Positions 10,112 through 14,374 of a stretch of 22,243 nt of DNA are shown here, piece by piece. Below the pieces are notes generated by a model. It made no database searches. It saw nothing but the letters and a program-made list of their open reading frames with translations, and was not told the DNA's origin. The stretch is from an uncultured archaeon (GTDB taxonomy: Archaea > Asgardarchaeota > Lokiarchaeia > Sigyniarchaeales > SOKP01): positions 1 to 22,243 of the forward strand of contig CAYUTF010000034.1 of NCBI GenBank assembly GCA_964447495.1. The letters are read 5' to 3'. Position 1 is the stretch's first letter. The number at the start of each line of letters is the position of its first letter. The translations under genes and the position numbers were made by a program.

Positions 10112-11473
10112 ATGCCAAAAAGAACGTATCATAGTTTCATATATCAAAATCTTGAAGACCTAAACAAAGAATTAGAAAAATTGGGTATAAAATTACCTTT
10201 AAGTTACAATGTCGATCTCTTAAAAACGCCCAAAGTATCTAGTCATATCTTTATCCCTAATAGAATTTCAATCCAACCTATGGAGGGTTTTGATGCGAAT
10301 TCTGATGGAACCCCTAGTGAATTAACTTTAAAGAGATACATCAAGTATGCTCAAGGTGGGGTAGGCCTGATCTGGTTCGAAGCAACAGCAATTTCTGAAA
10401 GTTGTCGTTCGAATTCTCATCAACTCCATTTAAATGAGAAAAATGCTGATAAGTTCAAAAGGATTATAACAAAAGTACGAGAAGAATGCAATCATACATT
10501 ACATAAACTCGGTTTTAAAGACAAATGTATCCTTATACTCCAATTAAACCATTCAGGGAGATATAGTAAATTAAATAGTGAGCGATTTCCTATTAGAGCT
10601 TATCATAATATGAAATTAGATCGAGCAATTAAGGCATCCAAAGAAAAAGGAGTTGTCATCACCGATAAAGAGCTCAATGAACTCAAAAATATTTGGGTAA
10701 AGAAGGCGTTAATTGCTCAAAAGGTAGGTTTTGACGGAGTTGATATAAAAGCTTGCCATGGATATTTGATTAATGAACTATTATCTTCACGAATAAGAGA
10801 AAATTCTATTTATGGAGGAATGCAATTAGAGCATCGAACCAAATTTCTTTTAGATATAATTAGGATTCTAAAAAATAAAATTTCCTCTGATAATTTTCTG
10901 ATAACGACACGATTAAGTATTTATGATGGGATTGAATATCCTTATGGATTCGGAGTAGGACCTAGAGAAAATAGTGAAGTTTCAATTAATTATGATCTAT
11001 CAGAGCCAATAAAGTTAATTAAAGATTTATATACAGGGGGGGTTAAATTAATCAATTTGACGTGTGGTAATCCTCATTTTCGACCATATATTACTCGTCC
11101 CTTTGATGATCCCGTTAAAGGCGAACCTTTTCCTCCAGAACACCCATTATTAAGTCTCTATAGAATTATGGACTTAACGGGTCAAATTAAAAAAACCATT
11201 CCTAGGAATATGATTGTCATTGGTTCTGGATTCTCTTACTTACGTCACCTTGCTGGATACCTAGCAGCAGGGATGATTGAAAATAATAACACAGACATTT
11301 GTGGATTTGGAAGAATGGCATTTGCTAATCCAAATTTTCCAAAACAAATCTTCAAAAACGGAATTATCGATAAAAAAGAAACATGTATAGCATGTTCAAA
11401 ATGTTCTGAATTGATGAAATTAGATAAACATACGGGATGTGTTATAAGGAATCCAGAATATAAAAATAATTAA
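10112..11473 (+). CDS. NADH:flavin oxidoreductase (Old Yellow Enzyme-like) with a C-terminal Fe-S motif
   Basis: PNRISIQPMEG, GLIWFEA, LQLNHSGR, GFDGVDIKACHGYL, YGG..LEHR and a terminal CIACSKC-x10-C. Confidence 0.92.
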   Translation: MPKRTYHSFIYQNLEDLNKELEKLGIKLPLSYNVDLLKTPKVSSHIFIPNRISIQPMEGFDANSDGTPSELTLKRYIKYAQGGVGLIWFEATAISESCRSNSHQLHLNEKNADKFKRIITKVREECNHTLHKLGFKDKCILILQLNHSGRYSKLNSERFPIRAYHNMKLDRAIKASKEKGVVITDKELNELKNIWVKKALIAQKVGFDGVDIKACHGYLINELLSSRIRENSIYGGMQLEHRTKFLLDIIRILKNKISSDNFLITTRLSIYDGIEYPYGFGVGPRENSEVSINYDLSEPIKLIKDLYTGGVKLINLTCGNPHFRPYITRPFDDPVKGEPFPPEHPLLSLYRIMDLTGQIKKTIPRNMIVIGSGFSYLRHLAGYLAAGMIENNNTDICGFGRMAFANPNFPKQIFKNGIIDKKETCIACSKCSELMKLDKHTGCVIRNPEYKNN

Positions 11474-11480
11474 AGAGCTC

Positions 11481-12278
11481 TTACTTTAATTTATATTCCT
11501 TAGCGGTATTATATAAATAACTAAAGTAATAATTAGCTGCTGGTCCAAACGCAATGTGATCGGTGACCACACCAAAGTAGGACAACTTTTTGAAGAATTT
11601 TTGAGTTAAAATTATGAAGGCATCCTCTCCCTCATCGATAACAGCACAATTTCCAAAAACTTGATCACGTGAGCGTATAACAGATATTTTAGTATATTTT
11701 GACAATAATTCAATAAATTCTTTATCTTTAAAAGCTTCATCTTCAACTAGAATTCGAATATCTGTGACTCCTCTTGCTCGAGCTTTCTTTATATCATCAT
11801 AAAAGATGTCAAGAAATTCAAAATCGGACGCAACCAAATAGAGGGCATTTTTAGCTTGTTCGATTAATGTTAAGCTCTTTGTAATGCATATATTCCTTCC
11901 ACGATGTATATATAATGCAACTTTTATCGGAGTATCATGTGATTGATATATAGGAGTTAGTGTATTTATGATTGTATTGGAATATTTATCAAAATTATCA
12001 TTATATTGTTTCTTGGCTATTATAAGCGCCTCATCCGGGCTTTTCGCAAAATACCTCGAAGGGCGACTCTCTTCCTCCCTAACCAAAAACTTCTTTTCCT
12101 TTTCCAACTGTGTGAGAATATTATATATTCGCGAATAGGGGACTCCTGAAGCCTCGGAGAGTTCTCGAGCATCCATTGGTCCCTTAACGATAAGGGTGAG
12201 ATAAATCGCAATTTCATAATCCGTTAATCCTATGTTTCTTAGAGATTCTTTCACGTTTTCTGGAATTTCTTTTGACAT
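11481..12278 (-). CDS. TrmB family transcriptional regulator
   Basis: N-terminal winged HTH GLTDYE..IY..L...ARELSEASGVPYSRIYNIL..L plus a PLD-like effector domain (ARARGV..IRIL). GGTGG upstream. Confidence 0.92.
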   Translation of the reverse strand: MSKEIPENVKESLRNIGLTDYEIAIYLTLIVKGPMDARELSEASGVPYSRIYNILTQLEKEKKFLVREEESRPSRYFAKSPDEALIIAKKQYNDNFDKYSNTIINTLTPIYQSHDTPIKVALYIHRGRNICITKSLTLIEQAKNALYLVASDFEFLDIFYDDIKKARARGVTDIRILVEDEAFKDKEFIELLSKYTKISVIRSRDQVFGNCAVIDEGEDAFIILTQKFFKKLSYFGVVTDHIAFGPAANYYFSYLYNTAKEYKLK

Positions 12279-12406
12279 TATTGACCACCAAAATTTAAAA
12301 TCGTGTAATTGAAGAGGTTTTAGGCATTTATAAGAATTTTGTTATATAGTTAATATTATCTTCCATCCTATTAATTATTAGTTATCAATACGATATTTCA
12401 CGATAA

Positions 12407-12478
12407 TGACAAAACTCCCATGCATAGGGAGGGTCTTCTTGAGACAATTGTTTTTTCTCAAGCGTCATACATTTGCCA
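12407..12478 (-). promoter_or_regulatory. Putative eukaryote/Lokiarchaeota-type SECIS element
   Basis: Minus strand reads ATGA-CG-CTTGAGA-AAAAACAATTG-TCTCAAG-AA-GA. This gives an AUGA/GA core (12468-12465 with 12435-12434), a perfect 7-bp upper stem and an apical loop opening with an A run. A possible lower helix is TGGCAAA/TTTGTCA. Confidence 0.65.
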
Positions 12479-12671
12479 ACTTTAGAAAATTCCCCGATAA
12501 GTGTACTAAATTTATACATCCTCATCCTCCTCCCCCTGTATTGTTATCTGCGACAGATTGGATTACTATCAATATTATTATAACAGTTACAGCAGAAATT
12601 ATTAATATTACAGCAAATATGGGGAGAAAAATAGATTTATCTCTAGATTTTTCAAGTATTTCATTTGACAT
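12465..12671 (-). CDS. Small single-pass membrane protein, candidate selenoprotein (68 aa with Sec50; 49 aa if TGA is a stop)
   Basis: MSNEILEKSRDKSIFLPIFAVILIISAVTVIIILIVIQSVADNNTGGGG-TGA(12524-12522)-GCINLVHLSGNFLKLANV-TGA. It has a clear ~24-residue hydrophobic helix, a Gly-rich GGUGC motif and a SECIS-like hairpin downstream. Absent from the ORF track. Confidence 0.65.
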
Positions 12672-12736
12672 ATATTGTTAATAAGACCATCGACTATGAA
12701 AAACTTTTCATGTTATATTTAGTACTAATTTATTTG

Positions 12737-14374
12737 TTAGGTTTGGTTTGTTGAAAAGTATTTATTTTTGAATTTTTTTCTCATTGCTTCGGGATTTTCA
12801 CCTTTTTTTAATACAAAATCTTCGTATTTACTGTATAAGCTAAGCATATCACTATATAATTGACAAACTCCGTCTTTAGGGAGGATAGATTTACTAGAAG
12901 GGACAATTTCCCACTTTTTCATAATCTCTGACCATTTAATATTTGTACCAATATTGTCATAATACGATTTCGCACTCCTTAATGTCGCACCCAATGCCGC
13001 AGAATCTGAAATCCTGGATATTATGACCTTAGTATTGAAAATGTCTGCAACAACTTGCAAGATTTCTCGGTTTTCTGAACCTCCACCAGTTGCAATAATT
13101 TCAGTGGGTTTATCTTTTATCCATTGGGAGTGAAGTCGCATCGATAAAAATTGAGCTTCGATTATCCCTCGTACGTTTGCCTCTAGATCATTCTCATCAA
13201 AACCAAAACGATATACATTAGGCTCTAATATTAAAGGTACAATTTCAGGATAAAAGTAGGGAAGCATTATCTTTCCGTTATTTCCAGGAGGGGTAATTTT
13301 TAAAATCTTAGAGAAATCATTCCAATTGAGATGAAAGTGATCTCTAATTGCTTCTCTTGCCAAGGAACCATTCTTGAAACAGATTAAGCCAATATAATCT
13401 CCCGTAGGCGCTCCAAAAACATGGCTTTCACCGCTAAGATCGAATGAGAGACTCTTCATATAACTAAAATAAGTATCGCTTGTACCCAAACTAATTGCTA
13501 CTTTACCTGGATCAATAATTCCTACCCCAATAAGGCTATTTGGGTTGTCTCCTGACCACACAATTATGTTAGTTTCTGGAGAAAACCCATATCGTTCTAC
13601 ATAGTACGATGAAATCTCACCGACAATCTTCGATGATTCTGTTAAAGACGGTAATTTTTGTGTTAAGTTTGGCGCAGTTGCATTAAGCGCTTTATTATCC
13701 CATTTCTTAGTGGTTATATTCATTAAATTCATTCCTGCGCCATCACCGTGATCAATCGGAGAATTTTTTCCCAATAATAAAGACGACATAAAGGAGCTAA
13801 TTAGATGGATTGTAGCCGTAGAATCATACTTTTTGGGATTTTCCTGATAAAATTTCCTAATCTGAGGTCCAGAAAACCGTTCAAAGGTATTTGAACCTGT
13901 AAGTTTAATGGTCGCTTCTAAACCACCTAAACTGTCTCTAATTTCGCTGCATTGTTGAGAAGTACTTGAATCCATCCAAACAGGGCTAATCTCTCTTGAG
14001 AATACCTCTCTTAACTGCTTAGCTAAAGGCATTAGTGGATTAAGTTTTTTTAAAATAGGTTGAAATTTACTATTTAAATATACAGTGCCATGCTGCTGTC
14101 CTGAGCCACTAATTGCCTTGATATTCTTTATTGGAACATTCGATTTTAGGAGCTTTTCAAATAATAAATCTAACGCTTCCACCCACATTAAAGGAGTAGA
14201 GTAAACCACTTTTTCATCCTCAGAGATATGCACCCCATTTTGAGTACGAAAATGTGATAAATCTTTATCATAGTTAATTATTATTTTGGTGATGATCTTT
14301 GTTGAATTACTGTCAATTACTATTCCAGTAAGACTCTGAGTAGAGCAATCTATACCAAGAAATAATTTTGTCAT
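12737..14374 (-). CDS. xylB: Xylulokinase, FGGY family (eukaryotic XYLB/Xks1-like subtype)
   Basis: LFLGIDCSTQS, SGSGQQHGTVY, WMDSST, ERFSGPQIRK, GDNPNSL, SLGTSDT, CFKNGSLARE and ATGGGSEN motifs. Confidence 0.88.
   Translation of the reverse strand: MTKLFLGIDCSTQSLTGIVIDSNSTKIITKIIINYDKDLSHFRTQNGVHISEDEKVVYSTPLMWVEALDLLFEKLLKSNVPIKNIKAISGSGQQHGTVYLNSKFQPILKKLNPLMPLAKQLREVFSREISPVWMDSSTSQQCSEIRDSLGGLEATIKLTGSNTFERFSGPQIRKFYQENPKKYDSTATIHLISSFMSSLLLGKNSPIDHGDGAGMNLMNITTKKWDNKALNATAPNLTQKLPSLTESSKIVGEISSYYVERYGFSPETNIIVWSGDNPNSLIGVGIIDPGKVAISLGTSDTYFSYMKSLSFDLSGESHVFGAPTGDYIGLICFKNGSLAREAIRDHFHLNWNDFSKILKITPPGNNGKIMLPYFYPEIVPLILEPNVYRFGFDENDLEANVRGIIEAQFLSMRLHSQWIKDKPTEIIATGGGSENREILQVVADIFNTKVIISRISDSAALGATLRSAKSYYDNIGTNIKWSEIMKKWEIVPSSKSILPKDGVCQLYSDMLSLYSKYEDFVLKKGENPEAMRKKFKNKYFSTNQT

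Follow-up and report, generated by a model that had tools for sequence, protein, structure and literature searches.

Does a TGA codon that gene callers treat as a stop in fact encode selenocysteine (Sec), and if so, what kind of protein does it complete? The question arises at positions 12407 to 12671 of a 22,243-nt stretch of DNA (the window, to whose whole length all coordinates refer), which is one contig of a genome (3.8 Mb, 98% complete) from a Lokiarchaeial strain of salt-marsh sediments. An earlier note, made from the letters of this stretch, had proposed that a minus-strand open reading frame (ORF) here encodes a small membrane selenoprotein, either homologous or analogous to the eukaryotic proteins SELENOK and SELENOS (SelK/SelS). 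Our analysis indicates that 12671..12468 (-) is very probably a real, overlooked gene for a Sec-containing membrane protein. On comparative sequence evidence, we consider it highly likely that the 68-residue product is a genuine selenoprotein whose UGA is decoded by way of a type-I selenocysteine insertion sequence (SECIS), with a predicted membrane anchor, Sec outside the membrane and a putative redox, chalcogen or metal centre at the surface. We place it in a selenoprotein family of its own, outside all described protein families, that relies on the Sec-decoding system already known from Asgard archaea.

A reading frame that continues past an in-frame UGA

The coding features of the locus are listed below; residue numbers are those of the 68-residue product.

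12468..12671, minus strand: coding sequence of the 68-residue selenoprotein (ATG at 12671..12669; the terminating TGA at 12467..12465 is excluded)
12522..12524, minus strand: Sec codon TGA, codon 50, invariant among homologues
12546..12629, minus strand: predicted transmembrane (TM) helix, residues 15-42 (AlphaFold2 with the family alignment)
12516..12536, minus strand: loop rich in Gly that carries the Sec/Cys motif T-G-G-G-G-U-G-C, residues 46-52
12468..12515, minus strand: hydrophobic or amphipathic C-terminal tail, residues 53-68, INLVHLSGNFLKLANV

The product opens with MSNEILEKSRDKS, followed by a hydrophobic segment and then NNTGGGG. The TGA at codon 50 comes next, after which Gly-Cys and 16 further residues lead to a second TGA stop (12467..12465). 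The ATG at 12671 (-), the charged N terminus, the TM helix and NNTGGGG, as well as the in-frame TGA with its continuation, had all been described in the earlier note and were found where it had placed them. The same is true of a SECIS-like hairpin 53 nt past the first TGA, the AUGA of which (12468..12465) overlaps the second stop. Under translation table 11, the ORF listing gives 49 aa for the small ORF, which ends at the first TGA. Four other DNA assemblies, none of them flagged as a possible source of this sequence, carry the identical TGA and hairpin, and an assembly error is therefore unlikely.

The UGA is the one invariant position of a protein family

A protein search covered 42 genomes of the genus, 38 of which were matched at E <= 10, and all 23 rows with E <= 2.6e-4 contained exactly one internal TGA. 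The 38 genus loci that were read gave 36 distinct proteins; a further 60 distant loci were fetched, and 57 of these were Sec-type (40 + 17). The related genomes are kin, and homologue counts are not independent events. Each of the 36 genus proteins had a K/R-rich N terminus, a TM helix, a Gly run, the TGA, a nearby Cys and 11-19 codons more, with the Cys at +2 (U-x-C) or +4 (U-P-S-T-C) from Sec. The plan common to 93 loci was a K/R-rich N terminus, one TM helix, a Gly-rich linker, an in-frame TGA, a nearby Cys and a hydrophobic tail.

TGA occupied the Sec position in 93/93 Sec-type loci and TAA or TAG in 0/93, so that conservation of codon 50 as TGA, which the note had asked for, was found throughout, and the TAA or TAG that it had named as refuting was not seen in any homologue. 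Sec was also the sole invariant column in both protein alignments (22-44% identity to the 68-residue protein; 20% mean column identity), and G47 and G49 were at least 90% conserved in the genus-level alignment. These counts bear on the alternative of an ordinary stop at the TGA, under which the gene would yield a 49-residue membrane peptide with GGGG at its end, and the hairpin would serve as a terminator or be some other, unrelated RNA structure. Gene callers do annotate the gene in this way, with 47-aa proteins in public databases, and the openness of the frame past the TGA is not statistically distinctive. An ordinary stop, however, fits poorly with a codon that is TGA in every Sec-type locus although the terminal stop of the genus copies varies (TGA in 17, TAA in 18 and TAG in one).

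The family profile matched 95/154 genomes of the order and 125/400 of the phylum. Clear matches were confined to the taxonomic family of the host (96/134 other genomes) and its sister family (3/3), with no clear member outside these two in the profile search of the 400 phylum genomes. Most other profile matches (20 at E <= 0.001) fell in ORFs of 104-1212 aa and were apparently driven by the TM helix; two long-ORF matches were inspected, one of them uncertain (L137) and one without Sec (L140). Homologues carry the database labels of Lokiarchaeota and Promethearchaeota metagenome-assembled genomes. At the DNA level, a search of 40 relatives found the small ORF too diverged, and the sole match was the promoter and leader of the adjacent TrmB-family gene.

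The Sec motif itself varied among UxC, CGU, CxxU and UC, and one genus ended in GGGUG* or GGGGUC*. In a second subfamily, from another genus of the same family (L133, L142, L146-L153), the TM helix was followed by a poly-Asp/Glu linker, the motif C-x(1-3)-U and a hydrophilic tail of 40-60 residues. These loci also had a SECIS, which the open frame entered in several cases. One locus of this acidic-linker subfamily, L141 (G112:C136), reads ...DDDDGCNCR... where its relatives have C-x-x-U and has kept its SECIS (48.3 bits with the covariance model R1 described below); it may be a recent Sec-to-Cys conversion. Two Cys-only proteins, P0105 and P0122, were also matched, with scores driven by the TM helix.

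A type-I SECIS element with compensatory changes

The hairpin region comprises the following elements.

12407..12478, minus strand: complete Y-shaped SECIS, in which the lower stem 12478-12472 pairs with 12413-12407
12434..12468, minus strand: SECIS core and arm, with AUGA at 12468-12465 and GA at 12435-12434
12463-12456 with 12444-12437, minus strand: SECIS arm of 8 nt, with 7 Watson-Crick pairs and one G.A
12455-12445, minus strand: A-rich SECIS apical loop of 11 nt, AAAAACAAUUG
12415..12431, minus strand: second small hairpin in the SECIS, CUCCC / GGGAG with a 7-nt loop

In order, the hairpin runs AUGA-C-GCUUGAGA-AAAAACAAUUG-UCUCAAGA-A-GA. The 76-nt element alone folded better than shuffled sequences (z -2.08; 4/200 shuffles as good), with a minimum free energy structure (-19.2 kcal/mol) identical to the centroid; the 252-nt 3' region as a whole was no better than its shuffles (z -0.76). 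The single-sequence evidence for the gene and the hairpin is modest, and it is the comparative evidence that is decisive.

In the excerpted text of PMC11227280, Asgard type-I elements have a GA_[G/A]A core, mostly AUGA_GA; their upper stem measures 7-15 bp with no more than two mismatches, and their apical loop (8-20 nt) starts with A's in Lokiarchaeia. The element at 12407..12478 conforms to this model: its core is AUGA...GA, its arm has 8 positions, one of them a G.A, and its A-rich loop is 11 nt long. All 36 genus copies had the AUGA, 1-2 nt, an arm of 7-8 bp, an 11-nt loop, the return arm and 1-2 nt, followed by a 3' core dinucleotide that was GA in 35 copies and AA in one. The arm was 97.6% paired in the alignment, and both sides had changed in 7 of the 8 pairs, which 0/500 shuffles reached. 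Over all 12 pairs, pairing stood at 96.1%, compared with 35-56% for slid partner columns, and the second hairpin was 93.1% paired in homologues (ACCC-CGCAA-GGGU).

A covariance model, R1, was built solely from the 36 genus elements. In the host genome (150 of 5226 candidates scored), R1 returned the element at 12407..12478 (59.9 bits) and at least five more at E <= 9e-5. Three of its matches lay directly behind HdrA-MvhD/FrhD clusters (E 1e-7 to 7e-6), the ORFs of which contain multiple in-frame TGAs; a pattern scan added a fourth HdrA-MvhD cluster and a hydrogenase large subunit ending ...DCULSCAAH. In 51 of the 60 distant loci, R1 detected exactly one element (E <= 6e-6 in each case). The loci that it missed were four of one genus and three of the sister family, all of which match a looser pattern, and two non-members. 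The conserved downstream hairpin that the note had called for was thus present in all genus copies, with covariation, and in most distant loci. If the TGA were an ordinary stop and the hairpin a terminator, the Asgard SECIS core, the arm length, the A-rich 11-nt loop and the compensatory changes would be hard to account for, as would the retrieval by R1 of the SECIS elements of the host HdrA-MvhD selenoprotein genes.

The element resembles the SECIS elements of Asgard HdrA-FrhD/MvhD, FrhA and Prx-like genes, which, in the excerpts of PMC11227280 and PMC4989117, have the same AUGA_GA core, an arm of 8-9 bp and an 11-nt loop starting with A's. As in those genes, it comes just after the stop, and its Y-shaped fold, second hairpin included, matches that of the HdrA-MvhD elements of the host. 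It differs from the other Asgard SECIS genes in serving a 68-codon ORF of no known family, in a UGA-to-AUGA spacing of only 51-60 nt in the 36 genus copies and in an AUGA core (12468..12465) that overlaps the terminating UGA.

Three host HdrA-MvhD SECIS elements (C5:23281-23368, C51:4549-4637 and C126:2476-2565) folded to the same Y shape. The AUGA...GA arm and a second hairpin, short and rich in G/C, branch from a common closing stem to make a three-way Y. The excerpted Asgard SECIS literature (PMC11227280, PMC4989117) makes no mention of the second hairpin.

Coding signal past the UGA

An in-frame Cys was located within four codons after the TGA in 36/36 genus copies, compared with 1/36 and 8/36 in the other two frames. 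Among the distant members, 37/40 had an in-frame Cys within four codons on either side of the TGA, compared with 1/40 and 9/40 in the other frames. The frequency of U at codon position 2, which is a mark of hydrophobic residues, was 0.46 past the TGA and 0.45 ahead of it, against 0.30-0.34 in a non-coding control. The length of open frame beyond the TGA was considered as a test and rejected, since frame +2 is also open. Coding conservation past the TGA, another of the note's proposals, is therefore supported by the in-frame Cys and by U at position 2, with frame length and periodicity weak. Given the in-frame Cys, the invariant TGA and the covarying hairpin, we judge an ordinary stop at codon 50 to be very improbable.

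The host can decode UGA as selenocysteine

The Sec machinery that the note had looked for was found in the host genome, one component of it below a strict cut-off. A tRNA-Sec with anticodon UCA (57.7 bits) directly adjoins SepSecS (E 1e-113), and an EFSec/SelB-type factor on the same contig as the tRNA-Sec scored 245 bits, above its cut-off. A PSTK-like kinase was detected (E 4e-42, 144.8 bits), which does not reach the strict equivalog cut-off of 290.5. The host SelD carries one in-frame TGA and is itself Sec-containing.

Two further loci of the host genome combine in-frame TGAs with SECIS elements. On the minus strand of contig C1 (138253..137780; locus L062:1605-2078), a 158-residue ORF has adjacent in-frame TGAs at codons 122-123 (G-C-U-U) and is followed, past its stop, by a type-I SECIS (R1 40.8 bits); Pfam gave nothing for it at E <= 0.1. 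It matches 117/134 other genomes of the family at E <= 1e-5, and nearly all of the matches listed keep two TGAs. The ORF seems to represent a further selenoprotein family, one that the excerpts of PMC11227280 do not name. On the minus strand of contig C48 (18401..18288; loci L177-L182), a 37-residue zinc-ribbon-like ORF (CxxC...CxxC) ends ...RFK-TGA-TAA, with a SECIS approximately 45-55 nt downstream (R1 49.4 bits) and the terminal RFK-U-stop kept in 6/6 loci. This ORF is a candidate for a tiny selenoprotein with a C-terminal Sec.

Predicted topology places Sec outside the membrane

AlphaFold2 predicted a helix over residues 15-42, with mean predicted local distance difference test (pLDDT) scores of 76, 90 and 83 in the three 10-residue blocks covering residues 11-40, and a loop over residues 43-51 that holds GGGGU. 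The best 19-residue Kyte-Doolittle window of the 68-residue protein had a mean of 3.4, and the family median was 3.1. Positive charge was strongly asymmetric, with a mean K+R of 4.3 in the N-terminal flank and 0.12 in the linker, a bias true of 75/76 members. Median lengths over 76 members were 11 residues for the linker, which was net acidic, and 17 residues for the tail (range 1-61). In the 68-residue protein, Sec sits 18 residues from the end and approximately 12 past the TM helix. Because of the positive-inside charge bias, the N terminus is likely to be cytoplasmic and Sec to lie just outside the membrane; the predicted orientation is N-in/C-out, with an extracytoplasmic Sec.

The same features could describe a cleaved signal sequence, in which case a short peptide starting with Sec-x-Cys would be released or lipid-anchored. 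A K/R-rich n-region, a hydrophobic core and small residues (GGG) just ahead of Sec are all in keeping with such a signal, and the tail is conserved as hydrophobic coding sequence. The hydrophobic segment, however, has a median of 23 residues, which is the length of a membrane span and above that of a typical signal h-region. In the genus that ends GGGUG* or GGGGUC*, the released product would be two residues long, and, while tails range from 1 to 61 residues, what members share is the segment from the TM helix through the Gly linker to Sec. Cleavage is improbable on these grounds, and we prefer the membrane-anchored protein.

Resemblance to known selenoproteins and membrane proteins

In SelK and SelS, a long, disordered C-terminal domain rich in Gly and Pro lies in the cytosol and carries Sec among its last two to three residues. 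The earlier note had left open whether the archaeal protein is a homologue of these proteins. The coarse layout is indeed common to both: a short protein that crosses the membrane once, a Gly-rich stretch containing Sec towards its C-terminal end, and a SECIS with an AUGA...GA core in the 3' untranslated region. The end of one genus, ...PPPNGGGUG*, also resembles the GGUG-type ends of SelS and SelK. In contrast, approximately 11 residues link the TM helix to Sec here, where SelK/SelS have a long disordered domain; the orientation is predicted to be reversed, with Sec outside; and most members have a hydrophobic tail past Sec, a penultimate Sec being found in one genus only. The SelK/SelG and Selenoprotein S models of Pfam (matched by family name; we take SELENOK/SELENOG to be PF10961 and SELENOS to be PF06936) gave matches to 0/36 and 0/43 members at E <= 10, and a profile search of the PDB returned only TM-helix and coiled-coil noise.

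The distribution is restricted, with clear members found only in one Lokiarchaeial family and its sister family among the 400 phylum genomes. PMC11227280, as excerpted, describes Asgard archaea as the nearest relatives that eukaryotes are known to have, which would favour common descent, but reports no eukaryote-specific selenoprotein family in them. True homology with SELENOK/SELENOS is very unlikely in the light of the failed Pfam matches, the short linker and the opposite predicted orientation, and this part of the earlier proposal found no support.

The only Pfam family with a motif-level resemblance was the FeoB-associated Cys-rich membrane protein (PF12669), likewise tiny, in which a Gly/Cys-rich segment comes after a single TM helix. 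It aligned to residues 22-52, with a match far below threshold (12.5 bits vs 27; E 0.14-0.18) in 3/36 and 3/43 members, and PF12669 itself has Cys only and no Sec. The C-terminal tail of thioredoxin reductase, Gly-Cys-Sec-Gly, is a redox motif on a large soluble flavoenzyme. The archaeal motif is similar to this tail in having a flexible, Gly-flanked Sec beside a Cys, able to form a selenenylsulfide; unlike in thioredoxin reductase, it is the sole recognisable functional element of a membrane-anchored mini-protein.

Gene neighbourhood and promoter

The small gene lies between an FGGY kinase upstream and a TrmB-family regulator downstream (11481..12278, -), an arrangement kept in the genus (four other loci compared). 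In other genera, the neighbours are an ARMT1-like phosphatase, a phosphoglycerate kinase (on the opposite strand), a hydrolase, a major facilitator superfamily (MFS) transporter or a NUBPL-type ATPase. Because the neighbours are unrelated across genera, the gene probably stands alone rather than in an operon. TATA-like motifs were located 24-33 nt upstream of the small gene, and a Shine-Dalgarno sequence was missing (4/34), which would fit leaderless mRNAs, although the signal is weak in AT-rich DNA.

Between the SECIS and the TrmB gene, a 48-nt stretch at 12297-12344 (-) contains a TATA-like box and the TrmB leader. It was 79-96% identical in the eleven best-matching same-genus genomes, whereas the protein of the flanking small ORF was only 22-44% identical. 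This stretch may be an autoregulatory operator.

The small ORF lies directly upstream of the same-strand TrmB gene here and in the four other same-genus loci, and the TrmB promoter and leader are unusually conserved, an arrangement that could suggest a selenium-sensing upstream ORF whose read-through or termination controls TrmB. However, the downstream genes of other genera are unrelated and yet the ORF architecture is kept, TrmB is served by a separate, conserved promoter that contains a TATA element and lies between the SECIS and the TrmB start codon, and the TM helix and Cys are under coding constraint. A regulatory ORF is accordingly the most remote of the alternatives weighed here, and we retain the reading as a protein-coding selenoprotein gene.

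Annotation and the published record

A profile search of 5.8 billion proteins retrieved 66 relatives, nearly all of them 47-aa hypothetical proteins ending in GGG. An exhaustive search of 1.84 billion representatives gave 63 similar matches, among which the longer entries read the TGA as Trp (GGGW.C); such Trp-for-Sec entries include P0003-P0005, P0069, P0070, P0073, P0077, P0085, P0101 and P0120. The Trp versions are presumably a pipeline artefact of contigs called under a TGA=Trp table. As the earlier note had suspected, gene callers have missed this gene, since its database relatives either stop at the TGA or carry Trp.

According to the excerpted sources, a survey of Asgard archaea listed seven selenoprotein families, found through homology to known families (PMC11227280), and a 2026 review counted 11 in all archaea (PMC13188914); the families in both are all soluble enzymes or enzyme subunits. 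A SECIS-first search in Loki reported no further candidate in the excerpted account of Mariotti et al. (PMC4989117). In the excerpts of PMC4989117, PMC11227280 and PMC13188914, the word "transmembrane" was absent, and "membrane" occurred only twice, in PMC13188914 and in other contexts. None of the papers listed by a full-text literature search dealt with small transmembrane archaeal selenoproteins, with supplementary tables and a groundwater-MAG study cited in PMC13188914 outside its scope. Searches for known families are likely to miss this one because it has no known domain and no clear Cys homologue.

Discussion

The central claim of the earlier note, a small single-pass membrane selenoprotein with a eukaryote-like 3' SECIS, is supported by 93 loci, by covariation in the SECIS and by the host machinery. 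Several observations nonetheless weigh against it. Past the TGA, the frame is open for at least 12 codons in 68/76 loci, compared with 57/76 in frame +2, and substitutions by codon position 1/2/3 are 30/20/33 in 14 close pairs, which is weakly periodic; the same pairs give 134/78/134 before the TGA, a distribution of the same shape. The curated SECIS families of Rfam were unmatched in 11000-14000 at E <= 10, where only chance-level matches appeared. The helix predicted for the tail (residues 52-66) is of low confidence, with block pLDDT means of 57 and 53 over residues 51-68. Most selenoprotein families have a Cys-for-Sec orthologue; here no clear one was found, the candidates being only L141, P0105 and P0122. 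The gene context gives no functional support, as the neighbours differ between genera. A Cys near Sec is missing in 3/40 distant members, and a His follows Sec (at +3 to +9) in only 13/36 genus members; because neither residue is universal, no single chemistry appears to be conserved except Sec itself. A general Sec-Cys-His metal site was rejected on the same His count.

We propose the following mechanism. The UGA at codon 50 would be read as Sec, with decoding directed by the type-I, eukaryote-like SECIS at 12478..12407, 56 nt downstream, acting with the host tRNA-Sec and EFSec system. Translation would go on for 18 codons and end at the second UGA, which lies inside the SECIS core and is probably too close to it for recoding. 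The K/R-rich N terminus would remain in the cytoplasm, and helix 15-42 is predicted to span the membrane, so that a flexible Gly loop of approximately 11 residues would display the Sec-x-Cys pair at the outer membrane surface. The short hydrophobic or amphipathic tail helix would probably rest on the membrane or dip back into it. Sec and the neighbouring Cys could form a reversible selenenylsulfide and make up a redox or chalcogen/metal-handling centre at the membrane surface. Such a centre is suggested by what stays constant across the family: a membrane anchor, a flexible linker of Gly and a Sec that has a Cys at a distance of one to four residues. A surface redox or chalcogen-handling role is the most likely function, although we assign it only tentatively and from sequence features; metal binding ranks second and seems unlikely.

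One could further imagine an Asgard-specific radiation of membrane-anchored mini-selenoproteins from which the SelK/SelS-type membrane selenoproteins of eukaryotes evolved, an idea that we find improbable. A weaker version, if true, would mean that homology-based surveys substantially under-count Asgard selenoproteomes: this one genome holds at least three candidate families outside the family names in the excerpted literature, namely the small membrane protein, the Cys-Sec-Sec protein and the zinc-ribbon protein. Hundreds of public gene models are cut at the Sec codon, and SECIS-first searches in Asgard genomes would still pay off.

If the membrane selenoprotein described here is real, it would be the first membrane-anchored selenoprotein in archaea and probably the first archaeal protein to display Sec outside the cell, and the selenoproteome of archaea would exceed present estimates in both size and lineage specificity. 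The layout of a TM helix, a Gly-rich segment and Sec would then already be in use among the closest relatives of eukaryotes, and independent invention of the eukaryotic membrane selenoproteins would become testable.

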